Source: a virus. Taken from it: DNA of 64,000 nucleotides. The DNA is taken from the IMG/VR virus record IMGVR_UViG_3300032213_003144, positions 96,001 through 160,000 of that record; one strand, written 5' to 3'. Position numbers and translations under genes: made by a program. Positions 15,872 through 45,523 of this stretch are shown piece by piece. Position 1 is the stretch's first letter. Each line of letters begins with the position of its first letter. The notes beneath the pieces are model-generated. The model did no database searches. It had not been told where the DNA came from and saw only the letters and a program-made list of their open reading frames with translations.

Positions 15872-17950
15872 ATGGCTTGGAATTCATCCGAAAATAAGTC
15901 TGCTGGTCAAAAGCAGACTAAATCCGCCATTGGTTACGGCGCGCCCGTATCAAGTAACCCAAGTTACACGGATAAGCCATACAGGGACTCGTGGGATATT
16001 GAGCGTGCCTATAGAGAGGGCATGCAGAAAATTACCTGGGTTAACAGGTGTATAGATGCAATTGCTGGGAACCAAGCAAGACTTCCGATAATTCTAAGAA
16101 AAGACAATTCAAAAGACGGCGAAATCGTAGTCGGCCGTGAGGCCAAGCGTTCTTCATTGCTTGAGCTCCTCAACGTTAAATCAAATATCGGCGAGAACTC
16201 TTTTATTTTCAGATACAGACTTTCTGCCCAGTTACTACTTGGTACGCGCGGAGCATTTATCGAAAAGATTCGCGGACGAGATGGTGGCGTTATTGGGCTG
16301 AACCTTCTTCCGCCACAGTCAACTGCACCAATTCCTGACGCTAGAACATTTGTTTCTGGGTACGAAGTGCAGATGCCTTACGGTAAAAAAGTAATAATGA
16401 AGCCAGAGGATGTTGTCTGGATTAGAAGGCCTCACCCGCTAGACCCATATCTGTCGCTAACTCCATTGGAAGCATCTGGAGTTGCCGTAGAAATAGAAAA
16501 CCTAGCCAAGTTGTACAACAGAAACTACCTGCTTAATGACGGAAGACCTGGTGGATTACTTGTTGTCAGAGGTGAGATTGACGAAGACGATAAAGAGGAA
16601 TTACGCAATAGATTTAGGGGTAATTTAGGGAAAACTGGGCACACAACAGTTATCGCTGCAGACGAAGGTGTTGACTTTGTTGATACTTCGGCAAACCCAA
16701 GAGACGCTGCCTACATACAAATGCGTCAAATTACAAAAGAAGAAATTCTTGCTGCGTTTGGAGTTCCAGAATCAGTAATTGGAAATGCCTCAGGACGAAC
16801 GTTTAGTAACTCATCTGAAGAGATTAGAGTTTTCTGGGTAGAGACAATGTTGCCTCACTTGGAGCCAATAGCAAGAGCTCTCGATGAACTTGACGAAAAG
16901 TATTACCTTGACTTTGACACAAGCGAAGTTCCAATTTTGCTGCTTTACAAACAGGAACGTGAAAGATACCTAAAAGACGAATTGGGCCAAGGTCTCATCT
17001 CTGTGAACGAATACAGAATTGCGAGCGGAAGAAAAGAAGTTGAAGCAGACCTCGCTGATTCATTACTCATGAATCCGAACCTGATTCCTATTGCTAATAC
17101 AAAAAAGAAGATGGAAGAGAATGCCGCCCAGATACCCGGTGGCGCTCCTGGGGCACCAGGAATGCCTCCAATGCCAGGTATGCCACCAGTTCCAGGTATG
17201 CCACCAGTTGAGGGCGCAGTTCCACCACTTGACCCAAATACGATGCAAGGTGCAATGGCTGAAGTTGCAGCCGGTGGTGCTGGTGACATGGCTCAGACTA
17301 CGCTCCCACCAGAAGTGGCCGGAATGGCACCAGCAACTGGAGCAGCCCCAATACCGCAAGGCATGGCTAGCGACCCACAAGATGGTTTTCAGTACAAAAC
17401 AGCACTGACCGAGGATTTTGATAAATCGGAAATGGCGATTGAGCGCTGGTCAGAAATTCTCTCCAGAGGAATCGAGAGGGTCGTTGAAAGACAGCAAAGG
17501 GTTGTTCTGGAAAAGGCTGGCAGCAGCAAGTCCAAGAAAGCTCTGATGTCTGGGACTCTTGACCTTGATTCAATTTTCGCCACAGATACATGGAACAAGC
17601 AAATGGAAGACGACTTGCGTCCTGTTATTTCCGCAATAATCAATGACTCTTTTGAATTTAGAAAAGAATCGTATTCTCAAAAAGGACTCAAGCCGAGAAC
17701 AATTGCGCCTGCGACAATTAAGAAAAATATCGATTCACAGATATCAAGAATCATCTCAATCAACTCAGGTATTCGTTCTTCAATGGAAGAAATGATGATG
17801 AAATCATTCTCCCACGCTGGAGAAGAGCAAAGATTTTCCGTCTTTAGAGAAGAGCTTGTGGGCATGTACGCAAACATTCTTGCCAAGGACCAGTTGGAAA
17901 TTTCAGAAACTGAAGCAAAAAATGCATGGACGTTTGGACAGGTTGGATAG
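15872..17950 (+). CDS. Portal protein (HK97 type) with Pro-rich linker and C-terminal extension
   Basis: WVNRCIDAIA, LSLTPLEA, NDGRPGG, EILAAFGVP, ISVNEYR. Confidence 0.95.
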   Translation: MAWNSSENKSAGQKQTKSAIGYGAPVSSNPSYTDKPYRDSWDIERAYREGMQKITWVNRCIDAIAGNQARLPIILRKDNSKDGEIVVGREAKRSSLLELLNVKSNIGENSFIFRYRLSAQLLLGTRGAFIEKIRGRDGGVIGLNLLPPQSTAPIPDARTFVSGYEVQMPYGKKVIMKPEDVVWIRRPHPLDPYLSLTPLEASGVAVEIENLAKLYNRNYLLNDGRPGGLLVVRGEIDEDDKEELRNRFRGNLGKTGHTTVIAADEGVDFVDTSANPRDAAYIQMRQITKEEILAAFGVPESVIGNASGRTFSNSSEEIRVFWVETMLPHLEPIARALDELDEKYYLDFDTSEVPILLLYKQERERYLKDELGQGLISVNEYRIASGRKEVEADLADSLLMNPNLIPIANTKKKMEENAAQIPGGAPGAPGMPPMPGMPPVPGMPPVEGAVPPLDPNTMQGAMAEVAAGGAGDMAQTTLPPEVAGMAPATGAAPIPQGMASDPQDGFQYKTALTEDFDKSEMAIERWSEILSRGIERVVERQQRVVLEKAGSSKSKKALMSGTLDLDSIFATDTWNKQMEDDLRPVISAIINDSFEFRKESYSQKGLKPRTIAPATIKKNIDSQISRIISINSGIRSSMEEMMMKSFSHAGEEQRFSVFREELVGMYANILAKDQLEISETEAKNAWTFGQVG
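17156..17209 (+). repeat. 18-bp tandem repeat x3 encoding PGMPP(M/V)
   Basis: ccaggaatgcctccaatg / ccaggtatgccaccagtt / ccaggtatgccaccagtt. Confidence 0.9.
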
Positions 17951-18046: not shown

Positions 18047-21000
18047 TTGGTTCCAAAAATGTCAAATGAAGCATTCGAATACAAGTCATCGGCGCACGGC
18101 TCTCAGTCCATCAAAGGAACGGTCAGCCTAGACGAGGCCCAGGGGATAGTCGAATGTTTCGTAGCTGGAATTGGTAATAAAGACTCAGTCGGAGACGTAT
18201 GTGCTTCAGGAGCCTTCACAAAGAGCCTTCTTCGCAGAAAGCCAAGAGTTGTATGGGGCCACAACTGGAATGACCCTATTGGTAAAGTATTGGAAATATA
18301 CGAGGTTGGTCCACAGGACCCACGCCTCCCACTGAAAATGAAACTTGCCGGGATAGGCGGTTTGTTTGCAAAAGTTCAATTTAATCTAAGTTCAGAAAAA
18401 GGAAAAGAAGCATTTGCTAATGTCCACTTTTTCGGAGAAGAACAAGAGTGGTCGATTGGATACAAAACACTAAGAGCTCAGTTTGACCAAAAGTCGCAAG
18501 CAAATATTCTTTACGAAGTTGAACTCTACGAAGTTAGCCCTGTTCTCCACGGAGCCAATCAGCTAACAGGAACAATATCCGTTAAGGCAGATGATTCCGC
18601 CTACGGAGGTTCAGTAGCAATGATGCCGCAAAGAGAAGAGAGCAACGGCTACGAAGAAATGGAGAAGGAACTCTCCAATCTATTCGGTGCAAAAGTTTCT
18701 GTTCATTCAATCGATGGCGACGAGGTCGTATTCACACGCCAAGAGATGAACGGTGCGAAGAAGTACAAGTGCGGCTTCATGAGAAATCAAGGCCGATACA
18801 TGTTCGGAACTCCTGAAGTAATCAATATTCCGCAGTCCCCAGTTCGTTCTCCTCAATCAGCACCAATGCCTGTGGTGAGCGGAAGACCTACTCCACCCAA
18901 CGACCCACAACGCGTCATTAGACCACAACAGATGCCTTCAATACCAGTTGCGATTAAGCCAAGCGACAATGGGCTAATGATGATTCCTCTTCCAGCTGTT
19001 CAGTATGACTCAAACGAAAAGCCGTCCCTGGACAAGGAGGAAGCAGACCTCCGTGATGCGCTGTTAAAGATAGTTTCACGCCACGGCAAATTTAACGAAG
19101 ACTCTAACGGCGTATGGGCTGGATACAGCCCTGCAGAAGAAAACGAAGTAGCACGTATCGGTGTTAAATGCTCAAACTGCGTCTTCTATCAAGGCGGCTC
19201 AAAGTGCAAAATTATTGACATGCCAGTTGAGCCAGAAGGGAAATGCAGATTTGCTGTTATTCCAAATGGGATTGTTTTGAGCAGTGGTTCCAAAGAACTC
19301 GAAGAGCATGTTTCCGAAGCAGAAAATGCAATCATCGATGTACTAGAACTAAAATACCCAGGCGAGTTTGTTCTTGGAATTGTCAGAAATGCAGTTGGTA
19401 AGAAAAAGAAGAAAAGAAATAAATACAAAAATCTTTCAGAGTTTGGTGATGACGACGACATGGGTGAAAAGTCGTACGTAATACCAGTCGAGCCAAGTTT
19501 TGCATTTAGAGTAAAAACAGCCCTTGACCCAATATTCGATTACCACAGAGCAGAGACTTTTGTTGACTCAGAAGGAATAGTGATTACCTCTGGGGTAACT
19601 GAAAATCTCATAGACGCAGTCGATACGGCTCTTCACAACTTAAAAAAAAAATTCTCAGAACATGAAATAGAGGGAAAATCCCTCGGTTACAGAATAGGTC
19701 GGTCGCTTGGTTCGAGGCTCGTAGATAGACCAAACCTCGGTGGTGGTAGGGATAGAAACAACCGTGGCGGCGGTCGTGGATTCGGGATGCCGGATGGCGA
19801 CCTTGACCCCAGGACAAGAGTTGACAAGAATAGGGATGGAACACTTTTTGATAATGTCCCAGGATGGGAACAGCCAGACCCAACCCCAGATGGACCTGGT
19901 TCGATAAATAACCGAAAACTCTCTTCCTCACAAAGAAGAGATGTTGCCAATATTCCGAGCGAGAGCGTAAACCCAGAATCGGTAGACGGTGACGTAATAA
20001 AGAGCCGCAAACCAAGGTATACGGCTGATGACCTTGGTGAAATCCTTGGAGAAAAGAAGAAGCCAACGAAGAAGGCAGTAGCAAAAAAATCTCCTGTTAA
20101 AAAAGAAAAAGTAAAGCGTGGAGAACTTGATTTCGCTAAGGGTCCCAAAAAAGATAAGACACCATCACTATCCTCTGGTGAGGAAAGACCGCCACGTACT
20201 GCAGTTGCAATGCAGATGGACCCAAAGAATTCGAAGCTTGCAAGACAGATTGATTACGACCCACAGAATGGTGACCTCACTGTTTATTACAGAGATGGCA
20301 AAAAAGAAACATTCAATGATGTTCCTTATGACCGCGTGCGTAAGGCTGGATTTGACGACAAGCCAGATGCATTAATCAGTGCACTACAGAGAGAACAAAA
20401 GAAACCACAAGGCAGGATTAGTCTTGCATCTGGGGAGCAAGAAAAGAGACTTACCCGCCACTCTGGTGACCCAAAATTTGAATCACTTGTATCTCCAGAA
20501 GAACTTGAAAAGCGTAAGAAGTTTGAAGAAGTAATTAAAGACTGGAAAGACTCTGGTTACGGATGGGAAGACGTTCCTAGATACAAGCCAGACGTCTACA
20601 AGTCCCCGGATTATTTGCGTGGTAGGGAAATGGGCGTCAATCAGGCCAAAGTTATGTGGCGTGGAGATAGCACGGTAGAGAGACCAAAGGGATTCAACGA
20701 AAAGCAAAAAGCCTCACTTGATTATCAAGAGTGGTATTCACGAATGGTGATGAGGGCTGGAGCTTTTCTAGAAGCATCACGTGGCGATGACAACGAATTC
20801 TACAACGGCATGGAAGATGCCATGCATGAATTCATGTACAACAATAGACCAGATATAACAACCTACAACATCGATGGAGATAGAAAAGAACCGATGGCCG
20901 ACTGGATGCGTCAGTACGGATTCGACCCAGGCTCACCGACTCCATTAAGAAAGAAAAAAGAAGGAAAGAAGAGAAGTTCACTCTCCCTCTCTTCTGGCGC

Positions 21001-24000
21001 AGACGACGATACAAGACCAAACTTTGATGAAGAGAATTACGAAAGTGATACCAACGTAGATTTCTACGACACCCTTCTTGACATGATGGGCCCAGAAGAA
21101 GAAAGACCAAAAGTCACTTCTCGCAAAAAGCCAAAAGACATGAGTGATGAAGAGATTTATCGCAAGAGAACAACAACCGGAGCATCCCTGCAGGATGTTG
21201 CGGAAGAACTTGGTCTAACTAGAATGGAAGTTAGGAAGCGCGAACAACGACACATGCGCAAAATGCGCAATGAAAAAGACGGCGTATCACTTTCTTCTGG
21301 AGCAAGCGATGACTGGGCCACTTCTAGGGGATACGAGCCAGACAGATTCGACCTTCGCGAAACGATGAATCAAATTGGTAGAGGAAACATAATGGCCATA
21401 TCTGGTGGCCGCGTTGAGCGTAGAGGGAATGAAATGATTCTTCCTTCTACAAAAGACCAGCAAGTAGTCATCGGGTACAACTCGGTTCCAGACCTCTACT
21501 ACGTCAGAGCTGAGCAGAAAATAAATACAGGTAAGGACAAGGGAACCAACAGAATTCTTGCGCAATGGGACGAGGTTTATGCTGACGAAATTGGCGAACT
21601 CGCATATCAGGCAAGTCTCAAGCCAGCAAACCTCAATAGTGAGAACAAGGAGTACTGGAAGCTCGGCAAGGGAAATCAATTTGCAGACAGACTCGTTGAT
21701 AGACGTAGCGGAAAGCTCGTAAGCAGAGAATCAAGAAATCTTCCATCAAAGCCAGCGCCAGAGGAAAGCCCAACTCTTTCTTCGGGTGGCAGAGGTCGTG
21801 ACTACTACAACTACGACATAACAACAACCGATGAAGGAAATGGATTACTCGACCAGGTGCATGATTACCTTGAAGAGAACCCCCTAATCAAAGATGACAT
21901 AACAACCGATATTGCAGACATGCTCGGTGGAGATGGAATAGTTGAGGCTAATGGCTTTGACACAAAAAAGGCATTTGACCTGGTTACTGGTGGAGACGAT
22001 GAGTTCCAGGATTATATGGACATCGTTGATGATGCCATGGAGGCCCTAAGTAATGGCTCCCTAGCAAAGCACAAGGCAACCGTTCGCGATACGAATGTAA
22101 GACTTGAGTCAGCAAAGCCAGGCAGTAATGAAGCAGGAAAACTCGAAGCAATCCGTGATAGGTCGTACGAGTGGATTGGCGACATAAACAAGTATTCACG
22201 CGTATCCACAATTAAAGATAAGAAGAATATTGAAGCCAGCGACGTGGCAACAAGAATGATTTCCAAAGAGCAAGATTCGCTCTGGAATGCTCGCGCGTCA
22301 ATAACAGAAAAATATATTGAAGATATTGCTTCAGCTGGAAAAGAATCAAAGCGCCGTGTATCAATCAGCGCAGTAGATACAGACTCTCGCGACATTCCAG
22401 AGTATGATTTAGCTCTCTCGTCTGGCAGTGTTTTTAAGGATAAACCAGCATCAAAAACGCTTTCCGGTAAGGCTGATGGCCTTTCTCTTGCCTCTGGAGA
22501 AAATAAAAAGATTTATGACGAAATAGGTAAGTCCATTCTTGAGGCATTAATTGAGATGGATAAGAACCCAACAGCAACCTATTGGGACGTACCGTGGAGA
22601 ACACCAACCCTATACGCAAGAAACCCAACAAAGAATCGCCTTTATCAGGGAATGAACTCCCTACTGCTTGCCAATGCGCATAGGCAGAATAAGTACAGAG
22701 GAAATTTCTGGGCCGGGAAGACTCAGTGGGCAAAGTTCGGTGGAACAATAAAGAATGGCAAGGATGGAGTAAATATCCTTGTTCCAAGAGAGGGTTCAAC
22801 CGGAAAATACTTTGTCGTACAGACCGTATATAACCTCGATGATATTGAAGGGCTCCCAGATGCATATGTAAAGAAGCTTCTAGATACAGGAAAGGAACTT
22901 CTTGACCCAGCGACAAAGATAAAGGACGCCGAGTCGGTAATGGAGGAAATTAATCCTGTCATCAAGTTTGGCGGAGATGCTGCATACTTCTCAATTACGA
23001 ATGACCATATTCAAATGCCACCATACGAGATGTTTAAGTCTCCAGAGCAGTACTACTCAACCCTACTGCATGAGCTAACACACTGGACTGGCGGAAAGTC
23101 TCGTCTTGGAAGAAAGCAGGTAGGCCGCCAACAGGACAAGAAGGCTTATGCATACGAGGAATTAATTGCAGAAATGGGTTCTTCTTTCCTTCTTGCCGCA
23201 CTTGGCATCGCACCAGAAGTAAGACAAGACCACGTTGTTTATATCAAGAGTTGGATTTCCAACCTTCGCGAGGACCCGGGTGCATTCGTTAGAGCAATGA
23301 CTGAGGCGCAGCAGGCGGCAGACTGGGTCATGGATAGGTCTCCAACAATGAGAAGACTTTCCGGTGTACCTGATAGCGAAAGAAAAGGAAAGCCAGATGC
23401 GGTTGATGCTGGGGAATCCGCAGTCTCAGAAGTAGTTGAAGAGACTAAGGGCTCTGTTACAGCACTCTCATCCGGCTCTCAAGTTGGATTAAGGAAAGCA
23501 AAAGAACTCAGATACTTTGGCGATGAAAAAGAATATGGCTCAGGCATAACTCAAAGAGACTCCAGTGGAAGGATTCTTGATGAATCTGGAGCACTTTCTC
23601 TTTCAAGTGGTGCAAAACCAATCGTCAGCCTTGACGGTAAAACAACGATTCCAAGACTAGACGACTCTGTCTCGTATAGAGAAAAGTATAAGTTCCTTCC
23701 TGATGAATTTGAACCAACAGAACAACAAAAGGCTTCAATAGACACGCTTGTTCATATGCTTGAAAGTGAGACACCAGGGATTGTCGCTATTGGTGCTGGT
23801 GCTGGTTCAGGAAAGACAACCAACCTTAAACAGAATGCTCGTGCAGTTGCCGCACTTTACCCTGGAAAACAAATTTATTACACCGTATTCAATAGAGGAA
23901 ATGCTAAAGACGGAAACAGGGTGATGCCTAGAAATACAGGTGTTGCAACTGGGAACCAAATAGCATATTGGTCACTTGTTCTTGGAACTGGAGACGCCTT

Positions 24001-27000
24001 CTATGGTGCTGGAACAACCAGAAAGATACAACTCGGAGTTGGTCCAAGAGACTCCAAGAAGTTGCGAGGAGCAAAACGTAACACCGTGAACGTTGCAACC
24101 ACGTTTGAGGGAGAAACAAAGGAATTCGCAGGAGAGATACCAGGGTACAGAGAGCTTGGGTACACAAGCTATGACTCTGCACCGAATATCGCAGAACGCC
24201 TTGCTAAAGATGGGATTGTTGACGAAGAAACTGATGATGGTTTTACTATTTCCCAAAATCTCAAAAAAGCTCTTGGCAGGTTTGCTGAAAGCTCGGATGA
24301 GAAGCTGTCAAAACAACATTTCCTACTTCGTGATATAGAGAAAATTCAGGCATTACAAAATGGTGAACCAGTACCAACTGAAGATTCAATCGATGAAAAA
24401 ATGGTTCAATATGCACAAATGCTTTGGGATGAAACAGTTGACCCAAAATCAAACGTGCTTATCCCGCAGGACTATCAAATCAAGATGTGGGCCCTAACAA
24501 ATCCAGACCTTAGGTATGACAAAGGACTGATTGGTCACAGGCCAAACGAAACAGTGTTTGATAAAGTTTTTCTTGGAACCGTTGAGGAAATGAACTCCGG
24601 AAAAATAAAAGTCGGAGACCTTGTAGAATTTAAAATTCCAGAAACTGGAGAAAAAGTTGCAGCAGTAATACGAAAACTAAACCCTCCATCAAAGAAAGAA
24701 ACAAAAAAGGGTGAGCTATCTGGCAGTAGACAAGTAACCGGAACTGTATCGATTGTTTCTGTCACGAGTGATAAGCCTCTTGATGTGTTCATGTTCGACG
24801 AGGCCCAAGACGTAAACCCTGTGTTGGCAAAAGTACTCGCCGATAATGCAAAGAACATGCCGATAATAATGGTTGGCGACTCACGCCAAGCAATCTATGG
24901 GTTCAGAGGAGCCATGGATGCCCTGGAGAAAGCTAATGCAACATTCAGACTTCCTCTAACACGTTCATTTAGGTATGGAGCAATCCCTGCATATTTAGCC
25001 AATGTCGTGCTGATGCAAGGCAATATAGACGATTTTAACTTTTATCAAAACATGGGAACACCCGAAAAAAACATATGGCACCATGTTGTAGGAGAGGCGC
25101 AAAATGTTGTTATAAACGCGCTCAACATAAACGGACCAGATGGGAAAATACTTCCTAAAAAAGAACTTGAAAAGAAACTTAAATTCATAGAAGTTAAATA
25201 CAAACTTGGCGGAAGAGCTGTCGACTTTAAGGGCAAAAACGAAAAAGAAGTAAAAGACATCATTTCAAAACTTTACGACGAACATGTCCCACGCGCTGAA
25301 GGTCAGATAGTTGAGGACATGACTAGTGCTGATGCTGTTCTAACTTCTACCAACTCCGGAGTAATGGTCGAAGCCTTGAAGGTAATCCAGGACGGTATTA
25401 ATGCACATCAAATCGCGTATCTCGACCTAGATGGAATAGAAGATATAAAAAATCCAGAAGAGCTAGCTGGAAGACTAAGAACATTATCCGAGAAATACAC
25501 TCTTGATGGTGTTGCTGTAGACCTTATAGAAATATTGGAAAAAGATGGTAGAGATTCAATGCTCAATGCCGTCAATGAACTTAGAGAAGAATATGCTCCA
25601 GGTGGAGCTGACGGGAAAATACCAGCCATTGGCATACCTGCCGACACACATGAAAAGTTTCTTGATTTCTTCACTCAACTCGACTGGATTATTGGTGACC
25701 TTGATAAGAAGTTTGGAATCGAAGGAAGACCAAAACCATCTAAACTACTTAAAGACGTATGGAGATTTGATAAGAAAAAGGGCAGATACCCATCAAAAGA
25801 TGAGATGCTGGCAAAAATTGACAAGATGATTAAGGGTGGAGAATCAGAACTTCGCACGCTTTACAACCTTGCTTACCCCAAGTCCAAGGATGGAGGGGTA
25901 AGAGGTGATGCAAAAGGGGCAAGATTCTTTAAAGACCTTTTACGTCCACAAGGCCAAAAATATACTGACATAAATGGAACTGAGGTTAAGTACCAAGGCC
26001 TTAGACCAATGCGTGAAGGAATCAATCTTCCGAATATGGAATCTGGTCGAGACCACATAACTACCGAAGAGATGGACAGAGTCGGAAAGCTTAAGCCTGG
26101 AACAAAATCTGGAAGCAGCCAAAAAATTTCCTGGATAATACCCAAGAAGGAAGAGAGCGTATCTGATGGTGAGGTATTCGTAAAACTTCACATCGGAGAA
26201 AACGGAAAGCCATCTGGAGCGTTGATAATTGCAGGCGATGGAGCGCACGGAGGAAAGTACAAAGTCAGAAGATGGAATAAGGCCAAGAAAACCTGGAGCC
26301 CAATCGAAGAGGGGAAACCAGGGAAGATTGACTACCACGGTGATATATCAAAAGTTATAAAAAAGATGAAAGCTGAATACCCAGACGCCGTAATTGAATT
26401 TAGGCAGGGACTAATACAGCAAGTTGGTACAGCTCAGACATTCCCATCAGACATATCTGATGATTTTGTCCCACCAATGAAAGGTGATTTGCCAGATAGT
26501 TCTGTGCCAAGAGCTTCGCTTCCAGGGTTCTTCATACAAGGAAAAGACAGCGAAGAAACTGCGCGTCTTGCCAATGAACTCGGAAACAGGGTTAGACAAC
26601 TTGCCACGGAAGGAAACACGGATACCGACATTATGACGGTTCATGTTTCCAAGGGCAGGGAGTGGAAGAGGGTCAGACTCGCTGATGATTTCAAAAATCC
26701 TGAAGACATGGTCCCAGTAATACCAGAAGAAGAATTAGCAAAGTTAAGTCCAAAGGACAGACTTGCTGTCGAGAGACAGCTCCAATTGATGCGCAGAGAA
26801 GAGCACAACAAGGTATACATTGCAATAACCAGAGCTCAAGAGCAAATAGATATTGGCGCAGTTCTTGCAAAACTTTATTTTGATGATTCACAAAACGCAT
26901 CTATAAAAAGTGCAAAAGATAAAATTGCAGAAAATCCAGATGGAATATATGACGAGCTTCAGGCTCCTGCTGGTTTCTATGTTCCGTATTCTGGTGATAC

Positions 27001-29131
27001 AGAAGCACGCGATGCTGCCAGAAAAGAACGCAGAAAGAGATTGGATGAGTCTTTCGATAGATACGTCAAGTCACAAGGAAAGACCAAAGATGTCGCTCCA
27101 GAAGAAGATGATGAACCAGAGGTGGAGGACGAATCTGGCGGTTTTGACTCTGGTGACCCTGATTTTGTTGATGTTGCTGGACCTGATGATGATGGAGCTG
27201 AAGAATTCGACGAAGAAGATGGCGACGTGCAGTCACTCTCCCTTTCTTCAGGAGCAAAGAAGAAGAAAACCAATAGGGCAAATAGGCGTCTTCCATTTAG
27301 TGAGCAAGAGAGACAAAGCCTTGCCGATGGAGACATATTGCGCTCAAAGAAAATACCCAAGAAGCGCAAACCAGCTCCGTCAAAAGAGGAGTTTGACGAC
27401 CTAGCTCTTGCCTCTGGAGCCAATACACCAGAGGGAAGATACGCCAGAAGACTGAGGTCGATAAGCCTTTCCAGCGGCAACAATGAGCTTGGCGCTGGAG
27501 CACAGAATCAAAGAATAAGTGGAAAGAGATTCGCCCGCAATATTTCCGGACCAAAAGACCTTGCATCGATAAGAGTTGATGGTGACCCAAGTAAAGACCC
27601 AAACGCAAAGAGAAAAATTGAATATGCGATGAGTTTCTGGCGTGGTGTCAGGGAACGCGGAATTGCTTTTGACCCCCAAGACGCATCACAAGATAGAAAG
27701 TCGATAGAAATTAATAACGCCATTTCTTCTGTGTCAAAATCCATGGCTACGCGACCAAAAGCCAAAATTGGTAAAGTTTCACAGAATCAAATAAAAGATG
27801 ATGTGAACCCAGACGAGTGGTTTGTCCCAGTATCAAAACTTAGGGATGCAATCAGAATTCCAACAGAATTCTCCAACTCCCCCGCGGACCCATCCAATCC
27901 AAATAGCAGAATGATTGCACGATGGACCCAAACAAGGCCATTAAGCAACGAAGAGTTGGGCAAGATGCTCTCTCTCAGCAAGACCGACATTGCAAAACTG
28001 TCAGACGATGATGCAGGAATAACCCACGACTCGGTTAGATTCCTGCTTGCGGCCATGGGGCAGCAGGAAGGTTTTGAGGCATGGAACTTTTTTGCTCCAA
28101 CATCTACTACCGAAGATGGAGTTTCCGCCATGTCTACTTCTGAGAAGTTCGTAGAGAATCTCGGAAGAGCCAACATGCGAGACAGGTTCATCATCGAAAC
28201 CTTTGGAAAAGACGCTTTCCCTTACTGGATTGACAAAGATGAGAATACCGTCATCGGCCAAAAGGAGTACTCATCGCTAGGCGAGGTCAGCGAGATGTCG
28301 AAGTTCAGGTCATCGGGTCTGTTTAGTAATAAGAGGAACGAATCAAACTTCTCCTCAACAGCCGAGGAGATGCTTCTTGAAGAGGCAGTATTTGGTGGAG
28401 ATGACACTCCAAGCGACATGGTTAAGCAGTCTGTCGTGGAAGCAGCTTCAGCCCCATCAGACAAGACCAGCCGAGAGCAGTTTGACGTAGACCAGCTCCT
28501 TGAGTCGTTGGGTATCGATAAGAGTGATAAGTGGCATGAAGAGCTGAAGAGGAGAATGGTCGAGTCTTTCGGGGTTGACGATGTCGGCCTGAATACGAGA
28601 GAGATTGCTAGAAACTGGGAGGCCGGTGGAGTCCCAACTACATACATAAATGAGATGATTAGAACAGGGATGATTCCTGATGCAAAGTCGGTATGGAAGA
28701 AAGATGAATCTGGCAAAAAGCTAGACCAAGAGCTGGCAGCATCTAAGCACTCCGTGTATGAAGCCCTGTATGAATTTACTCAGTCAAAGCACGCTGCTGA
28801 TAAAGCCAAAAACACTAGACGGAATAGGGACTACATCCTTAATTCTTCTGACTTCACGGTCTCCCATAAGGGTGTCGCTGCCAGAAAGGGAGCCACATTC
28901 TCAAAGAAAACTGGTGATGAAAGAAGATTCAGTCAGGGCGAACTACAGAATGTTGTAAATCGTTTTAATGAAATTTTTGGAACTAACTACAAGATTGATG
29001 ACATCTTTAGTGCTGAACAGTTGCGCAATGCAACAAAGAGATTGAGAGAGGAAGGCAGGACTCTGTATGGAGATGACGCCTCCGAACTCGGTAAAAGAGT
29101 TATCCTTAAGAAAGATAAAGACAAGAAGTAA
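18047..29131 (+). CDS. Giant prohead protease (HK97 family) fusion carrying KTSC, HTH, ArdC-zincin and SF1 (UvrD-like) helicase domains
   Basis: Protease: WGHNWNDPIG, WSIGY, EVSPVLHGAN. KTSC-like: IDYDPQNGDLTVYYRDG. ArdC-like: PWR..LYQGMN..LLHELTHWTG..YAYEELIAE. Helicase: AGAGSGKTT, DEAQD, VGDSRQAIYGFRGA, TVHVSKGREW, YIAITRA. Start may be ATG 18059. Confidence 0.9.
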   Translation: MVPKMSNEAFEYKSSAHGSQSIKGTVSLDEAQGIVECFVAGIGNKDSVGDVCASGAFTKSLLRRKPRVVWGHNWNDPIGKVLEIYEVGPQDPRLPLKMKLAGIGGLFAKVQFNLSSEKGKEAFANVHFFGEEQEWSIGYKTLRAQFDQKSQANILYEVELYEVSPVLHGANQLTGTISVKADDSAYGGSVAMMPQREESNGYEEMEKELSNLFGAKVSVHSIDGDEVVFTRQEMNGAKKYKCGFMRNQGRYMFGTPEVINIPQSPVRSPQSAPMPVVSGRPTPPNDPQRVIRPQQMPSIPVAIKPSDNGLMMIPLPAVQYDSNEKPSLDKEEADLRDALLKIVSRHGKFNEDSNGVWAGYSPAEENEVARIGVKCSNCVFYQGGSKCKIIDMPVEPEGKCRFAVIPNGIVLSSGSKELEEHVSEAENAIIDVLELKYPGEFVLGIVRNAVGKKKKKRNKYKNLSEFGDDDDMGEKSYVIPVEPSFAFRVKTALDPIFDYHRAETFVDSEGIVITSGVTENLIDAVDTALHNLKKKFSEHEIEGKSLGYRIGRSLGSRLVDRPNLGGGRDRNNRGGGRGFGMPDGDLDPRTRVDKNRDGTLFDNVPGWEQPDPTPDGPGSINNRKLSSSQRRDVANIPSESVNPESVDGDVIKSRKPRYTADDLGEILGEKKKPTKKAVAKKSPVKKEKVKRGELDFAKGPKKDKTPSLSSGEERPPRTAVAMQMDPKNSKLARQIDYDPQNGDLTVYYRDGKKETFNDVPYDRVRKAGFDDKPDALISALQREQKKPQGRISLASGEQEKRLTRHSGDPKFESLVSPEELEKRKKFEEVIKDWKDSGYGWEDVPRYKPDVYKSPDYLRGREMGVNQAKVMWRGDSTVERPKGFNEKQKASLDYQEWYSRMVMRAGAFLEASRGDDNEFYNGMEDAMHEFMYNNRPDITTYNIDGDRKEPMADWMRQYGFDPGSPTPLRKKKEGKKRSSLSLSSGADDDTRPNFDEENYESDTNVDFYDTLLDMMGPEEERPKVTSRKKPKDMSDEEIYRKRTTTGASLQDVAEELGLTRMEVRKREQRHMRKMRNEKDGVSLSSGASDDWATSRGYEPDRFDLRETMNQIGRGNIMAISGGRVERRGNEMILPSTKDQQVVIGYNSVPDLYYVRAEQKINTGKDKGTNRILAQWDEVYADEIGELAYQASLKPANLNSENKEYWKLGKGNQFADRLVDRRSGKLVSRESRNLPSKPAPEESPTLSSGGRGRDYYNYDITTTDEGNGLLDQVHDYLEENPLIKDDITTDIADMLGGDGIVEANGFDTKKAFDLVTGGDDEFQDYMDIVDDAMEALSNGSLAKHKATVRDTNVRLESAKPGSNEAGKLEAIRDRSYEWIGDINKYSRVSTIKDKKNIEASDVATRMISKEQDSLWNARASITEKYIEDIASAGKESKRRVSISAVDTDSRDIPEYDLALSSGSVFKDKPASKTLSGKADGLSLASGENKKIYDEIGKSILEALIEMDKNPTATYWDVPWRTPTLYARNPTKNRLYQGMNSLLLANAHRQNKYRGNFWAGKTQWAKFGGTIKNGKDGVNILVPREGSTGKYFVVQTVYNLDDIEGLPDAYVKKLLDTGKELLDPATKIKDAESVMEEINPVIKFGGDAAYFSITNDHIQMPPYEMFKSPEQYYSTLLHELTHWTGGKSRLGRKQVGRQQDKKAYAYEELIAEMGSSFLLAALGIAPEVRQDHVVYIKSWISNLREDPGAFVRAMTEAQQAADWVMDRSPTMRRLSGVPDSERKGKPDAVDAGESAVSEVVEETKGSVTALSSGSQVGLRKAKELRYFGDEKEYGSGITQRDSSGRILDESGALSLSSGAKPIVSLDGKTTIPRLDDSVSYREKYKFLPDEFEPTEQQKASIDTLVHMLESETPGIVAIGAGAGSGKTTNLKQNARAVAALYPGKQIYYTVFNRGNAKDGNRVMPRNTGVATGNQIAYWSLVLGTGDAFYGAGTTRKIQLGVGPRDSKKLRGAKRNTVNVATTFEGETKEFAGEIPGYRELGYTSYDSAPNIAERLAKDGIVDEETDDGFTISQNLKKALGRFAESSDEKLSKQHFLLRDIEKIQALQNGEPVPTEDSIDEKMVQYAQMLWDETVDPKSNVLIPQDYQIKMWALTNPDLRYDKGLIGHRPNETVFDKVFLGTVEEMNSGKIKVGDLVEFKIPETGEKVAAVIRKLNPPSKKETKKGELSGSRQVTGTVSIVSVTSDKPLDVFMFDEAQDVNPVLAKVLADNAKNMPIIMVGDSRQAIYGFRGAMDALEKANATFRLPLTRSFRYGAIPAYLANVVLMQGNIDDFNFYQNMGTPEKNIWHHVVGEAQNVVINALNINGPDGKILPKKELEKKLKFIEVKYKLGGRAVDFKGKNEKEVKDIISKLYDEHVPRAEGQIVEDMTSADAVLTSTNSGVMVEALKVIQDGINAHQIAYLDLDGIEDIKNPEELAGRLRTLSEKYTLDGVAVDLIEILEKDGRDSMLNAVNELREEYAPGGADGKIPAIGIPADTHEKFLDFFTQLDWIIGDLDKKFGIEGRPKPSKLLKDVWRFDKKKGRYPSKDEMLAKIDKMIKGGESELRTLYNLAYPKSKDGGVRGDAKGARFFKDLLRPQGQKYTDINGTEVKYQGLRPMREGINLPNMESGRDHITTEEMDRVGKLKPGTKSGSSQKISWIIPKKEESVSDGEVFVKLHIGENGKPSGALIIAGDGAHGGKYKVRRWNKAKKTWSPIEEGKPGKIDYHGDISKVIKKMKAEYPDAVIEFRQGLIQQVGTAQTFPSDISDDFVPPMKGDLPDSSVPRASLPGFFIQGKDSEETARLANELGNRVRQLATEGNTDTDIMTVHVSKGREWKRVRLADDFKNPEDMVPVIPEEELAKLSPKDRLAVERQLQLMRREEHNKVYIAITRAQEQIDIGAVLAKLYFDDSQNASIKSAKDKIAENPDGIYDELQAPAGFYVPYSGDTEARDAARKERRKRLDESFDRYVKSQGKTKDVAPEEDDEPEVEDESGGFDSGDPDFVDVAGPDDDGAEEFDEEDGDVQSLSLSSGAKKKKTNRANRRLPFSEQERQSLADGDILRSKKIPKKRKPAPSKEEFDDLALASGANTPEGRYARRLRSISLSSGNNELGAGAQNQRISGKRFARNISGPKDLASIRVDGDPSKDPNAKRKIEYAMSFWRGVRERGIAFDPQDASQDRKSIEINNAISSVSKSMATRPKAKIGKVSQNQIKDDVNPDEWFVPVSKLRDAIRIPTEFSNSPADPSNPNSRMIARWTQTRPLSNEELGKMLSLSKTDIAKLSDDDAGITHDSVRFLLAAMGQQEGFEAWNFFAPTSTTEDGVSAMSTSEKFVENLGRANMRDRFIIETFGKDAFPYWIDKDENTVIGQKEYSSLGEVSEMSKFRSSGLFSNKRNESNFSSTAEEMLLEEAVFGGDDTPSDMVKQSVVEAASAPSDKTSREQFDVDQLLESLGIDKSDKWHEELKRRMVESFGVDDVGLNTREIARNWEAGGVPTTYINEMIRTGMIPDAKSVWKKDESGKKLDQELAASKHSVYEALYEFTQSKHAADKAKNTRRNRDYILNSSDFTVSHKGVAARKGATFSKKTGDERRFSQGELQNVVNRFNEIFGTNYKIDDIFSAEQLRNATKRLREEGRTLYGDDASELGKRVILKKDKDKK

Positions 29132-29271
29132 GACGAAGGTCCAGGGTCTACATTTCCATCTAAACCACTAAATATTGCTAATCCATTCCAGAGGCGCGTG
29201 GTAGGTTATAATTTAGACCATTAACAAAAGGTAACACCAACTGGTGATTGCCTGTAAATTTCAGGAGTCAT

Positions 29272-30924
29272 ATGAGCTACGACGAAAAGGCCAATGTAAG
29301 CATCGATGCTGATGGAAACGTGCTGAAGTGCGCCAAGGGTGCCGCCCCTACCGAATGTGGCTTTGTAAAGGGTTCAGAGTTGTGCGCAAAATGTGGCGCG
29401 ATACCTTTACAGATGAAGATGGTCCCGATGGAAGACATGGTCGACGAGGACATGGTCGACGCCGAAAAGCCAATGAAGAAAAAGAATAAGAAGAAAATGA
29501 TTTCACTTCCAGATGGAAGCAATGAAGAAGAAGATGATGACGAAGAAGATGATGAAGTACTGGGCGACGGAGAGATTCCGGAAGATGCCGTTGGCATGAC
29601 AAAGCCAGACCTCAAGAAGCCAAGCCAAAAAGGCATGGACATGCAAATGGACGCCATGATGGCAGAGGGTGAAGAAGAAGACGAAGATGACGAAGAAGAA
29701 GACGAAGAAGAAATAACCGCCGCAGAGGGAATGGAAGACGAAGACATGTCTGAAGAGGAGCTTGAAAAAGCGCTCAACTGGATGAAGAGTCGTCGCATGG
29801 CCGAAAAGGGCGACATGGAAGTTGACGAAGAAATCGATGAAGAAGTCTCGGCAGAAACAGAAGTTCCTGAAGATGAAATGTCGGAAGACGACATCATGAA
29901 AGCATTGAATTACGTTCGCAAAATGAAGAAAATGCACGAGAAGGGTATTGACCCAGAGGAAGAAACCGACGAGCAAGTACTTTTCGATGCAGCAGACAAG
30001 GATTGGAATGACCTGAGAGAAGAGCGAATTGCATCGCTTGGAATCAAGTCGGAAGAAATTGGTCCTGACGGCTTTGTTTGTGCTCTTGACAGAAAAGCAC
30101 ATCCAGCAGGAATGTCGGTATGTGATGACTGCCCGGGCGGATGTGTTTCCGAAAAGGGACTCCCAGGACTTCTCCACGTTGAAGGTCTCGCCGAAAAAGC
30201 ATTTGATGGTTTTGTGGTTGACTCTGGTTATTCATCAGATGCCGACATGTTCGTCATCGACGTTCAGACAAAGGACGGCTCAGTCAAGGAAGTATTCGTT
30301 GACGGAACAACTGCGGAAATTATGGGATTCCATAAACTTGACTCAGAAGAGTTTGAACAAAAATCAGACTACACAAGTTTGAAACTTGTCGATTTTTCGG
30401 AAGCAGCAGAGATTGCTGTTAAGTCAATCGAGGGCCACGTAGTTGCTGTTGAGCCAGATGTTTTTGAAGGCTTCGATGCATACGCTGTAGAAATTGACGG
30501 AATTGACGGAAAGTCGTATGACGTTTTTGTTGCTTTGGACGGAGAAATTCTAGGTTACGACAAGTACGAGCCTGAAGAAGCAGAAGAGATTGAAGCAGAA
30601 GCAGCAGAGATTGCTCTTAAGAGAGCATTCACCGATGAGCAGAGAGAGTCGATGTCCAAAGAGGGCTCGGCAATGTCGGATGGCTCGTACCCAATTGCAT
30701 CTGAGAACGACCTACGAAATGCTGTTCAGGCTTTTGGTAGAGCAAAGGATAAAGACAAAGCTAAGCGTCACATCATGAAGAGAGCACGTGAGCTAAAGTT
30801 GGAGAGTCTTATCCCTGCAAATTGGCTCGCAGGAAGCAAGGAAAAGAGTGACGAGGTTGTAAATGATGCAGATTTCATGGCGGCCCTTGTTGAATTCCAG
30901 CTTCTCGAAAATAACATCGACTAA
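29272..30924 (+). CDS. Acidic head-associated protein (scaffold-like) with Cys clusters and PepSY-like repeats
   Basis: AGGAG SD before ATG 29272; D/E tracts; two Cys clusters; EVFVDGTTAEI and DVFVALDGEIL PepSY-like ends; C-terminal DGSYPI...DLRNAVQAFGRA. Confidence 0.6.
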   Translation: MSYDEKANVSIDADGNVLKCAKGAAPTECGFVKGSELCAKCGAIPLQMKMVPMEDMVDEDMVDAEKPMKKKNKKKMISLPDGSNEEEDDDEEDDEVLGDGEIPEDAVGMTKPDLKKPSQKGMDMQMDAMMAEGEEEDEDDEEEDEEEITAAEGMEDEDMSEEELEKALNWMKSRRMAEKGDMEVDEEIDEEVSAETEVPEDEMSEDDIMKALNYVRKMKKMHEKGIDPEEETDEQVLFDAADKDWNDLREERIASLGIKSEEIGPDGFVCALDRKAHPAGMSVCDDCPGGCVSEKGLPGLLHVEGLAEKAFDGFVVDSGYSSDADMFVIDVQTKDGSVKEVFVDGTTAEIMGFHKLDSEEFEQKSDYTSLKLVDFSEAAEIAVKSIEGHVVAVEPDVFEGFDAYAVEIDGIDGKSYDVFVALDGEILGYDKYEPEEAEEIEAEAAEIALKRAFTDEQRESMSKEGSAMSDGSYPIASENDLRNAVQAFGRAKDKDKAKRHIMKRARELKLESLIPANWLAGSKEKSDEVVNDADFMAALVEFQLLENNID

Positions 30925-30944: not shown

Positions 30945-33900
30945 ATGACGGGTGATAGAAACAAGACACGAGTAATCGTTTCTCAACGATTGATATCGCC
31001 TCTATCGTGCTGCAATAATTTCAATTCAAAAGCACTTGAATTCCGCTCGTCTGTAGTTCAGTCTCTTAGTTCTTCACGGCTTGATGCTGACGCAGCAGTT
31101 AAGGCTGCAATGGGCAAAAAACCGACATACGAAGATACAGATAATAGAAAACGTGAATTCACTGGAACAACAAAACCGGGTGTGACAGAGATTGCACCAG
31201 GAATCCGAGTCGAGGGGAATCAGGCTTGGGAAGAAGGCCGTGGCTTGGTTTTATACCCTAGCTGGAAATCAAAACGCTCCATGGACCTGGACGCAAATTT
31301 TGGTTGGATTAAAACAGAGAAAGATATAGATTTTCAAGCTGCGCAGAAAAAAAGAAAAGAAAAACCACAGCTTCAGTTCACCAAGTATCAGGTGAGTAAA
31401 AAAACAGGCGACGTAATACCTGATTCAGAAGTAAATATAGACATGGCTTACCCACATCTTGGTTTGTCGAGAGCGCAAAGAAGAAAAAAGAATAACTATA
31501 TAAGCAATCCAAAAATGGAATTTAAGGCTGGTCTTCCTGGTCGCTCTCTTGAATCCAGAGTTCCCGGCGGTAACCTCTTGGCAAGAACTGCAGGACGATT
31601 TGGAATAATGAGGGATGCTGCTAACAAATTTAGGTGCCCACCAGGAACACCAGCGGCAAACCAATTCACAGACCACCTTGGCTCCAACTGTTTTGGCGTT
31701 AGTGCTGAGAGAGCTGCCAAGTTCATAGCTGAAAAAATTTCAGATTTAATGAAGGTTAATGACGACTCAATTTCTCTTTCTTCTGGGGCAAAGTCAACAT
31801 GGAGAGAAAGACTCGGACTTGCTAGGCCAGATGTTGAGTTACCTGGTAGAAGCCCATCTTTTGATTTGGAGACAGGGGACAGAATACCGACAACGCCGGC
31901 TGAGATTGTTGATGTCCCAGGCAGGTTGAGATGGTTTAAGAATGCGACCGTAAATGCACAGAGAAACCTTGCTCGCTCTGAAAGCGTTATCCAAAAGCTT
32001 GAGTCAAGAATGGTCACTGGTGATTTCACCCCAGAGCAAAGAGCGGTAAACGCAGACAGGCATGCATTACTCCAAATATTATCAAATAGAGGAATTTGGG
32101 ATATAAATATTGAGGGAAGGTTGTCTGAGAGTGAAGTAAATGAACTTATTGCTTCAAGGCTTGAATCAATTCCAGAGTGGTCTTCGTTAACGGATGAAGA
32201 AAAACTAGCACTATTCACTGCTGACAAAAAAAGATTTTACGAGACAGAGAGGGCGATGCTTGACTCGCTTCTTGAACAGTTTGTTATTCGCCCAGAACAC
32301 ATGAGGACGATAGGGACAGTGCAGTTCCGTCAAGCAGCCCTTCCAGGAAACTCTGAAGCAGACACGCTCTGGGATGCTGGAACAAAAGGTGCAGAAATAA
32401 AATCAGTCATAAGAATAAACCTTGCACAAATAATGGAAAACCAGGAAAGCCTTATTCCAAATATGTCGGCAAGTGAGAGATTGGTTATTTCAGCTGTTGG
32501 CGCAAAGACCGATGCCGAAGCACTAGCTTCTGTTGCTGACTTCCTAATAAATACCGAATACACAGCACGTGGCATGGCTGGATTAATTGATGGGCCACGT
32601 TCTTTTGCCCGCCACATTATGTTGCACGAAATTGCCCATACAATCCAGGGCGAAGCATTTCTCGCAACAATAAAACAACAGATAGATGCAGTTGGTTACG
32701 TACAGGTTCCAGTTGTTAAGGATGGCAAATTTACTGGTGCTCTTAAAGAGGTGTCTGATTTCAAAAAATTGACAGGGATGGACCTTTCTGCTTTAGTGAT
32801 TAGTTCCCAGGACGATATAAATCTGACAGCACTCGAAGAAACAATGTCGAAAATTGAAAATGTTGCATTTTTAGCTGGAAGCTACCCTGGTCAATACAAA
32901 AACCCAGAAAAAATGGAGGTGTACGCACTTGAGTCGACTGCTGAGCTTTGGGGGCTAAGGGAAGAAGGTCTAATATTTGGTGACGACATAGATGATGCGC
33001 TTGGGTTCATGGATGACGCAATAGGAGCAAAAGCTTCTGAGGCTAGAGCAGCAACCGACCTTGAGATGCTTGAGAAGCTTGAGGAGTCATACTTCTCGCC
33101 GTATGAAAGAGGCGAAGATGTTCTTCCTATCAGAAAGCATCTACGCTCTGCAATTGAATTAGATAAAAAAGCAATTGCCATAAAACGTGAAGAACGTGAA
33201 ATAGCTGCGCACAGGGAAGAAATAAAAGATTTAGACCAAGACGGACTTGCTGAAAAACTTGCTGACACTATTTTTGAGATTGAAATACGGAAAGACATAT
33301 TAAGTAATCTAGAGAAAGAAAGAATTGATACTGAAAAAGCCGGGCTTCCTCTTGAATCCATAGATGAGGAAATTGAGAGAATAAAATCACCACTTCGTTT
33401 ATTAGAGAAGAAGAAGCAAATAGAAATTGCAAAAAATAGAGATTTCAACTCTGACGGAAAATCTAAGTCGGATAAAGAAATAACAGATATGGCTCTTGAG
33501 ATTAACAGGGCAAAAACACCAGCTACAGAAGAGATGGTTAAGCGCAGAGAGACAGAAGCTCGCATTGACTCCCTACGTAGCGAGGCTGAATCGCTAGATG
33601 AAAAGTCCCTGATGAAGACAATTGCAGACTACGACCTGAAGGCTTCCTCGCTTAAGCCGGACAGCGACGAATACATAACCGCGGTTGCTGACAGAGAGAT
33701 ATTTATCCAACAGCACATAGCAAACCAGAGAGCCGCTGGCGACACAAGACCAGAGAGAGCAATTCGAAATGAATTGAAAGCAGAGATTACCAAAGAAATT
33801 ACAGCATCACGCAAGGCTGTAGACGAGGCAAAGAGGGGGAAACTCAAGCCCCAAAAGATGAAGAGCAAAGAACAAATTGCTCAGAACGCGAAGAAGGAAA

Positions 33901-44155: not shown

Positions 44156-45523
44156 ATGTCGCAAGACAAAGCAAGAACAGAAGAGTTGCAATCAGCTCTT
44201 CGCACGAAAATGGCAGAGAATAAGGCCATTGCGGATTCATTCAAAGTTGAAGAAGGAACTGTCATAGTTTCGACAGACCAGAAATCAGCATTCGACAAGA
44301 ACATGAGAGACATCAAGGAAATTAAGTCACTCTTGTCCGACCTTGAAACAATGGGCTCAGTAGAGTCATGGTCAAATCAGCCACAGGGCGAAACAGTTTC
44401 ATCTGCTTACGCCGCTGCAGCTGCCGACATGAATCACCTGTCGTCACATGAAATCAAGTCAATTGGTCAGATGTTCCTTGACTCACCAGAGTTCAAGTCT
44501 TTGGCCAATGGTCGTAACGGTGCAAACATGTCATCACCATGGCAAGTTGCAACTTCGTTGACAACACACAACTTCGGCATTCAGCAGAAGGACATTTACA
44601 CAGCATTGCCAACAACATCAGTAACAAACAGCCGCCTCGGTGAGTTTGGAACAGTTCAACGCGATGCCATGGTTCTTCCTCCAATGCGTACGAAGCGTGT
44701 CCGTGACTTGTTCCCAGTTCGTAGAACAAACGCAGCAGTTATCGAGTACTTCCGTCAGCTTGGTTTTACAACCCTTCAAGCTGGTCATGGAACAAACTCG
44801 GCATCATCTGTTGCTGAAAGAACAACAGCTGGAACAGCATTTGGTTTGAAGCCACAATCTTCATTCGCATTCGTTGGCGAGCAAGCTCCAATTCGCACAT
44901 TGGCACACTGGGAAGCTGCACACCGCAACGTCCTCGCCGATGAGCCACAATTGCGCTCAATCATCGACAACGAACTGATGTACGGTCTCCGTCTTCTTGA
45001 GGATAATCAAATCCTCAACGGCAACGGAACTGGCGAGAACCTTCTCGGTATTCTCCAGACACCAAACATCCAGAGCTACAGCTGGTCAAGCGGCGCAACC
45101 TTGCCGGTACCAGACACCAAGGCTGATGCACTTCGCCGTGCAGCAACTCTATCGTTCTTGGCATACTACGAGCCATCTGGCATCGTTTTGCACCCGAACG
45201 ACTGGGAAGATATCGAATTGACGAAGGACGTAAACGGCCAGTACTTGGTCGCTATGTCAGTCGCAATGGGCGGCGAGCCAAAGGTTTGGAGAATGCCAGT
45301 AATTGACACTCCAGCCATCACTGAAGGCCAAGCACTTGTTGGTGCCTTCGGAACCGGTGCTCAGTTGTACGACAGAGAAGAAGCAAGCATTCGCATCAGC
45401 GAACAGCACTCAGACTTCTTTGTCCGCAATGCGATTGTGGTTCTTGCAGAACAGAGACTTGCTCTCGCTGTCAAGCGCCCAGAAGCATTCGTCAAGGTGA
45501 CATTCAACAACGCACCAGCGTGA
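44156..45523 (+). CDS. Major capsid protein (HK97 fold)
   Basis: Coiled-coil delta domain, QILNGNG, LHPNDW, KDVNGQYL, FVRNAIVVLAEQRLALAVKRPEAFVK; AGGAG SD. Confidence 0.97.
   Translation: MSQDKARTEELQSALRTKMAENKAIADSFKVEEGTVIVSTDQKSAFDKNMRDIKEIKSLLSDLETMGSVESWSNQPQGETVSSAYAAAAADMNHLSSHEIKSIGQMFLDSPEFKSLANGRNGANMSSPWQVATSLTTHNFGIQQKDIYTALPTTSVTNSRLGEFGTVQRDAMVLPPMRTKRVRDLFPVRRTNAAVIEYFRQLGFTTLQAGHGTNSASSVAERTTAGTAFGLKPQSSFAFVGEQAPIRTLAHWEAAHRNVLADEPQLRSIIDNELMYGLRLLEDNQILNGNGTGENLLGILQTPNIQSYSWSSGATLPVPDTKADALRRAATLSFLAYYEPSGIVLHPNDWEDIELTKDVNGQYLVAMSVAMGGEPKVWRMPVIDTPAITEGQALVGAFGTGAQLYDREEASIRISEQHSDFFVRNAIVVLAEQRLALAVKRPEAFVKVTFNNAPA

Follow-up and report, generated by a model that had tools for sequence, protein, structure and literature searches.

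We analysed a 64,000-nucleotide stretch of viral DNA (the window), bases 96001-160000 of one 170,425-bp phage contig (IMG/VR record IMGVR_UViG_3300032213_003144) whose source is an uncultured large phage, probably of fresh water and of Actinobacteria. Positions 18047..29131 of the plus strand hold an unbroken open reading frame (ORF) of 3,694 codons – here called the polyprotein gene – that opens with a prohead protease, continues into a series of cargo modules and carries a short recurrent peptide, the junction tag, between those modules.

The polyprotein gene and its modules

The true start of the polyprotein gene is probably ATG 18059 rather than TTG 18047, as MSNEAFEYK opens the homologues and the copy in the database is 3,690 amino acids (aa) long. 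The gene and its modules are laid out as follows.

18059..29131, +: polyprotein gene, 3,690 aa from ATG 18059; frame open from TTG 18047
18146..18577, +: HK97-type prohead serine protease domain (Peptidase_S78, hereafter S78), aa 34-177; His72 in VVWGHNW, Ser136 in EWSIGY
19160..19261, +: Cys4 zinc-ribbon-like insert (C375, C378, C387, C400), in many lineages but not all
19673..20176, +: basic tether predicted to be disordered, aa 543-710; the first conserved tag closes it
20177..20431, +: KTSC-like cassette, 85 aa; some of the closer relatives (P0003, P0006) lack it
20432..20995, +: module b04, 188 aa (aa 796-983); present in 44 family proteins
20996..21298, +: sigma-70 region-4-like helix-turn-helix (HTH) module, 101 aa
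21299..22423, +: modules b06 (162 aa; aa 1085-1246) and b07 (213 aa, acidic, pI 4.5; aa 1247-1459)
22496..23473, +: ArdC-N single-stranded DNA-binding domain and MPTase-PolyVal zincin, HELTH at aa 1675; double tags on both flanks
23609..27250, +: SF1 UvrD/RecB-type helicase with long insertions, 1,214 aa; no internal tag
27476..29128, +: C-terminal module, 551 aa (aa 3144-3694); usually the last module in relatives

The initial annotation had placed an HK97-type protease domain after the portal, and this was borne out: Peptidase_S78 covers aa 34-177 (PF04586, 42.9 bits against a cutoff of 21) and the portal gene lies directly upstream. TIGR01543 covers 140/142 positions at 47 bits, below its cutoff of 59, and we therefore treat the domain as a member of the family and not as an equivalog. 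His72 and Ser136 are invariant among 18 diverse members and, assigned by motif knowledge, are the predicted catalytic pair. Across the family the protease domain is at least 73% identical and the cargo is variable. A search of PDB sequences with the N-terminal 450 aa gave no match. The block at aa 414-710 yielded a low-confidence model (predicted local distance difference test, pLDDT, 58) and no PDB sequence match, no fold search having been made on it; pLDDT along the tether is mostly 43-52, with one block at 63. By sequence the protease module (aa 1-535) is intact and is joined, through the disordered tether, to 9-12 cargo modules.

The cargo domains named in the initial annotation were all recovered where it had placed them (Pfam, PHROGs, NCBIfam), with KTSC weak and Sigma70_r4 below its cutoff. 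The KTSC match (PF13619, aa 729-762) reaches 13.1 bits against a cutoff of 25 (E 0.079); P0070-P0072, homologues that hold ~90% identical cassettes, are listed with PF13619. Sigma70_r4 (aa 1043-1075) scores 21.6 bits against 24.1 and TIGR02937 20.8 against 42.9, and PF04545 is listed for several homologues. The ArdC-zincin module is well defined – ArdcN at aa 1487-1579 (PF08401, 46.9 bits, cutoff 22.6) and MPTase-PolyVal at aa 1627-1751 (PF18818, 132.8 bits, cutoff 27.5, 9e-39) with HELTH intact – and matches the anti-restriction family phrog_7245 (2.8e-63). The helicase domain, in pieces across aa 1896-2934, has motifs I, II, III, V and VI (GAGSGKT at 1918, DEAQD at 2251, GDSRQAIYGFRGA at 2277, TVHVSKGRE at 2864, VYIAITRA at 2923); PF00580 scores 39.9 bits (cutoff 23) and PF13361 25.2, just below its cutoff of 25.6.

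The description of the cargo as DNA-handling holds for about half of its mass; the rest (blocks 796-983, 1085-1246, 1247-1459 and 3144-3694) carries no assignment. An atlas search with blocks 1085-1459 gave no usable match. The AlphaFold model of the C-terminal module is good (pLDDT 79) and found no fold match by Foldseek against PDB (E >= 0.7), in BFVD (E >= 0.2) or in the ESM Atlas (template modelling score <= 0.30); a wide VIA-align search returned small HTH-like bundles only (best Z 4.7), and a profile run against PDB sequences found nothing.

The same layout recurs widely. Searching 5.8 billion proteins, we obtained 109 clusters that range over 2,031-5,154 aa and derive from independent assemblies; in most of them S78 is combined with ArdC-N, MPTase and helicase. 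IMG/VR holds at least 598 matching stretches. Equally long frames were present in independent assemblies, among them P0003 (3,606 aa, 91% identity) and P0009 (3,700 aa, 71%). The order of the modules changes between relatives.

A lineage-specific tag at module junctions

The motif L-[S/A]-S-G occurs at 13 sites in the polyprotein, where 0.23 would be expected; 2,000 shuffles gave at most 3. The sites start at the following positions.

20168..20179, +: junction tag LSSG, aa 708, the first conserved tag
19277 (aa 411, doubtful), 20423, 20987, 21290, 21776, 22415, 22487, 23465, 23600, 27242, 27407 and 27467, +: starts (nucleotide positions) of the other tags

A logo built over 24 sites reads [S/G/D]-[L/I/P]-S-L-[S/A]-S-G-[A/E/S]-[K/Q]. 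None of the 13 tags falls inside a Pfam envelope (P = 0.0014 under random placement). Conservation in ten full-length homologues is 92-100% in the tag columns of 10/13 sites and 26-88% in the flanks, and the sites at aa 793 and 981 adjoin cassettes that several of these homologues lack. Codon choice at the tag sites varies freely among synonyms, both serine codon families included – from which we conclude that selection acts on the tag peptide, and which rules out a DNA repeat or a DNA-level recombination signal as its explanation.

Short conserved spacer peptides (20-55 aa; 22424-22495, 23474-23608 and 27251-27475) lie between the double or triple tags that flank the ArdC-zincin module and the helicase, and recall the spacer peptides of retroviral Gag.

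The tag is not confined to the polyprotein. Genome-wide we counted 28 tag sites, 24 of them in three giant ORFs: the polyprotein, a second giant at 30945-39044 and a third that starts at 59108. These and the neighbouring structural genes are as follows.

15872..17950, +: portal protein (Phage_portal, 6e-50), directly upstream of the polyprotein gene
29248..30924, +: scaffold-like protein, 558 aa, acidic, Cys-containing, untagged
30945..39044, +: second giant protein, 2,699 aa; 3 tags, HExxH at aa 561, head-morphogenesis block at aa 2113-2291
44156..45523, +: major head protein, untagged; no N-terminal propeptide match
59108..64000, + (contig position 155108, on to 162859): third giant protein, 2,583 aa; 8 tags
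2..1543, -: first 514 aa of a tape-measure-like protein, Gly/Ala-rich, 1,648 aa; whole ORF at contig 92597-97543

The third giant carries an RNase_T exonuclease, a GNAT domain, a ParB-C-like block and two HExxH motifs, and its tags again bracket domains (RNase_T, GNAT). Neither the second nor the third giant has a protease domain. The tape-measure-like protein has one full-consensus tag, GPSLASGA, at aa 586 (contig 95777-95788, minus strand, just outside the window). This tag is kept in close relatives, and in a homologue of 39% identity the corresponding place is taken by GGLASAT and YGLASSG; the phage of that homologue has its own S78 polyprotein with nine GLAS tags and no LSSG.

The order portal, polyprotein gene, scaffold-like gene is the same in contigs L082, L083 and L087, and the large terminase gene is divergent. 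The scaffold-like protein has no family match and occupies the position where a scaffold is expected; it is rich in Met and very acidic, its Cys motifs and its C-terminal half are conserved, and it has no consistent tag site across lineages. An 'IASG' at aa 383 of the portal was rejected as a tag, other lineages having LMSG and IGTG there.

We observed that the tag varies between lineages. Homologues that bear S78 mostly have 3-18 LSSG-type sites each, against ~0.2 expected; polyvalent proteins with MPTase and without S78 (P0102-P0109) have none. Sub-lineages without LSSG have recurrent tags of their own – GFASR(G), GLAS[S/T/R] or FSSG – and on GFASR and GLAS contigs with the same gene order the second giant gene carries the local variant, never LSSG. 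The KTSC cassette is ~90% identical to cassettes of the GFASR lineage in proteins that are otherwise ~50% identical; its flanking tags are SLSSG and SLASG in the polyprotein, GLASRG and GFASR in those proteins. This suggests a recent transfer of the cassette between lineages, with the tags on either side changed to the local form; the same change is seen in block b06.

On these comparisons the tag appears to belong to the lineage and not to the cargo. A tag that sits at domain boundaries, is conserved beyond its flanks and co-varies with lineage is what would be expected of a polyprotein cleavage code. Because it co-varies across genes and converts in cassettes that move, we propose a sequence-specific, lineage-specific reader that acts in trans, for which the protease is the obvious candidate, the family being defined by one. 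On a quick protease tree the motif classes cluster (10 changes against 25 when shuffled), which is weak evidence since relatives share labels.

An alternative is that the tags are not cut at all, being flexible linkers, recombination-junction peptides or sites of Ser-Ser-Gly modification, and that the giants stay intact. In other systems O-glycans are known to be attached at Ser-Gly. There is also precedent for an uncut giant in the N4 virion RNA polymerase, which is packaged whole (PMC5512222). Even so, we consider this alternative improbable: a plain linker needs no 5-6-residue consensus conserved at 92-100%, the co-variation of the tag across unlinked genes and its conversion in moved cassettes point to a sequence-specific reader, the free synonymous variation removes DNA-level recombination signals, and the family is defined by a protease.

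An A-run at the end of the protease module

The junction between protease and tether carries a second conserved feature.

19642..19651, +: A10 slippery run (TTA AAA AAA AAA TTC), in frame, at the end of the protease module

This run is the longest homopolymer in the genome, and other lysine runs in the polyprotein gene are interrupted by AAG codons. It stands at the end of the folded protease module, just before the ~170-residue tether; a slip that adds one A would stop translation at aa 539, and one that removes an A at aa 540. A run of A9-11 occupies this position in 80/83 related loci. All 57 long genes carry it, in 26 distinct flanking contexts, and only one other run of nine or more A occurs in their 527 kb, where lysine codons elsewhere are 57% AAA. 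The codon before the run changes its amino acid and always ends in A. The run is in frame where the gene is intact, and a stop follows within 4-9 codons in either shifted frame. We found no stimulatory RNA structure downstream of the run (z 0.08).

By analogy with known recoding sites, the A-run is probably a programmed slippage site that uncouples a short protease from a long protease-cargo form. In Thermus thermophilus dnaX, transcriptional slippage on an A9 run gives ~50% short product, and in Escherichia coli the tau and gamma forms arise by a -1 frameshift at A_AAA_AAG (PMC1088944). The polyprotein gene resembles dnaX in its in-frame A-run within a long gene and in the close stops of the shifted frames. 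It differs in being a phage head gene in which truncation – here predicted from sequence – would part an enzyme from its fused cargo.

The A-run also bears on whether the frame is real. In three related IMG/VR and ENA contigs (L060, L078 and L087) the frame is broken exactly at the run, which could be taken as a sign that separate genes have been joined here by an assembly or frameshift artefact. These interruptions are single-A differences in a homopolymer, with homologous sequence resuming in the downstream frame, and may be either homopolymer sequencing errors or real population heterogeneity. More than 90 independent metagenomic clusters share the same continuous layout, and long frames occur in independent assemblies, as noted above; we therefore regard an artefact as extremely unlikely. 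P0013, considered as a natural split between protease and cargo, was rejected, since it reflects a one-base difference in an A13 run after which the next frame continues the homologous sequence.

Candidate tag readers and the proposed route of the cargo

We think it fairly likely, from the arrangement of protease, A-run and tags, that the gene encodes a protease-led cargo polyprotein made in short and long forms, cut at its tags and delivered with the DNA. Slippage of RNA polymerase or sliding of the ribosome on the A-run would give two forms, the protease alone (59 kDa) and the full-length protein (412 kDa), and the slippage ratio would set the proportion of protease to cargo, as it does for tau and gamma of dnaX. 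The long form would enter the procapsid by means of its protease module. A phage protease would then cut at the tags and free the ArdC-zincin, helicase, HTH and other modules, and the freed pieces would be ejected with the DNA to act before phage gene expression.

A number of findings weigh against parts of this proposal. The third giant sits outside the head module, with genes for primase, ribonucleotide reductase and thymidylate synthase around it. Tags in this replication-region protein and in a tail protein are beyond the reach of a protease confined to the procapsid, and the usual substrates – the portal, the scaffold-like protein and the major head protein – are untagged. The GFASR and GLAS lineages lack the A-run, so a two-product device would not be universal. 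The tag at aa 411 lies just after the Cys4 insert and is kept only in close relatives, so that the count becomes 12 good sites and one doubtful. Between lineages with different tags the S78 domain is 78-83% identical, and every giant contains an HExxH motif, that of the second giant being conserved in four lineages.

Because tags occur in giants without a protease and in the tape-measure-like protein, covalent linkage to the protease would not be the sole route. Because they occur in both a head polyprotein and a tail protein, cutting would not be confined to the procapsid and could take place in the cytoplasm or after ejection. All tagged proteins could be ones that leave the virion. The suggestion in the initial annotation that cargo is loaded by the head-assembly route is reasonable, the fusion being conserved and sited in the head module; neither the tags, here or in the other proteins, nor the A-run figured in that annotation. 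Its picture of anti-defence and early takeover finds support only in the ArdC-zincin module with its phrog_7245 match, and is plausible for the helicase and the HTH.

The setting of the third giant and the tag in the tape-measure-like protein, which is never inside the head, also fit a purely cytoplasmic polyprotein strategy, in which cutting would fix enzyme ratios within the same infection cycle and no cargo would be packaged; a free protease made by slippage could work in the cytoplasm. We judge this to be a minor possibility. The polyprotein gene has the portal gene on one side and the scaffold-like gene on the other and runs in the direction of the head operon, and the second giant has a head-morphogenesis block. 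An anti-restriction ArdC made late would presumably be useful only if carried to the next cell, and delivery has precedents in polyvalent proteins and in giant virion proteins of the N4 type (PMC5512222).

Within the favoured proposal of a delivered polyprotein, the identity of the tag reader is a separate matter. We put the fused S78 protease at close to an even chance, with a zincin – the HExxH of the second giant or the MPTase – as a less probable candidate. S78 is the hallmark of the family, and its module always precedes the first tag. Substitutions specific to tag class occur in S78 at positions 52-53, at position 71 (next to His72) and at positions 143-150. The tag core, L/F-[A/S]-S, resembles the Ala/Ser-Ser sites of assemblin-type proteases.

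The corresponding rival keeps the same architecture and delivery, has a phage zinc metalloprotease read the tag and leaves S78 to ordinary head maturation. One of its candidates is in the second giant.

32625-32639, +: HExxH of the second giant (HEIAHTIQ), aa 561 of ORF 30945-39044; candidate new zincin

The giants contain four HExxH motifs in ~9,000 aa, against ~0.25 expected from a rough His/Glu frequency estimate. The motif of the second giant has invariant H, E, H and Q and a downstream E..AEL..R in four lineages, in a region only 20-56% identical, which leaves room for a change of specificity. Many zincins prefer a hydrophobic P1' residue, and the invariant L/F of the tag fits. The tag in a tape-measure-like protein outside the capsid is easier to reconcile with such an enzyme, the lack of tags in the scaffold-like, portal and capsid proteins suggests a different specificity for S78, and autoprocessing by MPTase has been predicted (Iyer 2017, PMC5512222). 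Against this, MPTase-bearing polyvalent proteins without S78 are untagged, many tagged S78 polyproteins have no HExxH of their own, and the HExxH region of the second giant matches no peptidase family in Pfam or PDB; the residues near the catalytic His of S78 and at positions 143-150, moreover, change with tag class. We consider a zincin reader possible but doubtful.

A wider reading, which we offer tentatively, is that these phages are a family of tailed double-stranded DNA phages with a polyprotein strategy like that of RNA viruses and retroviruses, in which the lineage code marks all proteins that leave the virion at infection, the cargo giants of the head and the tape measure alike, and a protease is delivered with them. 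The giants would leave by threading, whole or partly cut, the co-delivered phage protease would then process them into active enzymes, and the A-run would set the ratio of protease to cargo as frameshifting sets that of Gag to Gag-Pol.

The closest described relatives are the polyvalent proteins, for which packaging, delivery and proteolytic processing were predicted by Iyer, Burroughs, Anand, de Souza and Aravind in 2017 (PMC5512222). Like them, the polyprotein is giant and multidomain, is encoded beside virion genes and combines ArdC-N, MPTase zincin, helicase and conflict-type domains: S78, ArdcN, MPTase-PolyVal, UvrD helicase and weak KTSC and sigma-r4 matches occur in one polypeptide. Assemblin-like peptidases are rare in polyvalent proteins and 'always at the C termini' (PMC5512222), whereas S78 is N-terminal here and defines the family. 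Term searches of the text of that paper turned up neither a junction tag nor a slippery run, nor a lineage-specific tag code that other virion proteins share, and it was the only prior description of this kind of architecture found in a literature search. What is new here is the N-terminal protease, the lineage-specific junction code common to other virion proteins and the predicted slippage site at the junction.

Herpesvirus UL26 encodes an assemblin precursor with an N-terminal protease, a linker and a scaffold, cut at (V/L)-x-A↓S sites. It is alike in protease fold family, in the N-terminal position of the protease within a longer head-interior protein, in small-residue (Ala/Ser-Ser) self-release sites and in a second, differently sized product from the locus. 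The C-terminal part of UL26 is scaffold, with two sites and a nested transcript; the polyprotein has enzymes, 12-13 sites and a homopolymer in their place. The prohead protease of SPN3US and phiKZ cuts packaged, later-ejected proteins (gp245/gp175) at an A-X-E motif (PMC10052503). It too is a head protease with a short consensus and several sites per substrate, cutting being predicted in our case. The SPN3US/phiKZ enzyme is, however, a free-standing protease of the T4 gp21 type whose substrates are separate genes, processed mostly by removal of N-terminal propeptides, whereas here an HK97/S78-type protease is fused to a multi-module substrate, tags separate the modules and a tail protein is tagged. 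The nearest S78 domain in a cultured phage (~41% identity) is in Gordonia phage DalanDe gp27, a long head-module fusion of 1,633 aa with S78 near its C-terminus, no other Pfam domain and no recurrent tag. DalanDe gp27 and the protease gene of Actinomycetia phage DSL-LC01 were rejected as tagged relatives, neither having a recurrent motif.

If the tags are cut, tailed phages would have in them a modular system for loading and release. An enzyme cassette of any kind could then join the injected payload once flanked by the local tag, which fits the shuffling of cassettes among relatives, and the slippery run would be a new example of recoding that sets virion stoichiometry. The system would also offer a handle on the packaging of large counter-defence payloads and on the activation of polyvalent proteins. 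The tag itself allows cargo boundaries to be predicted from the sequences of hundreds of uncultured phage genomes. Finally, the ends of the contig (1-60 and 170366-170425) are C-rich with short repeats (CCTACCTA... and CCCCA...) and may be real termini or an assembly artefact.

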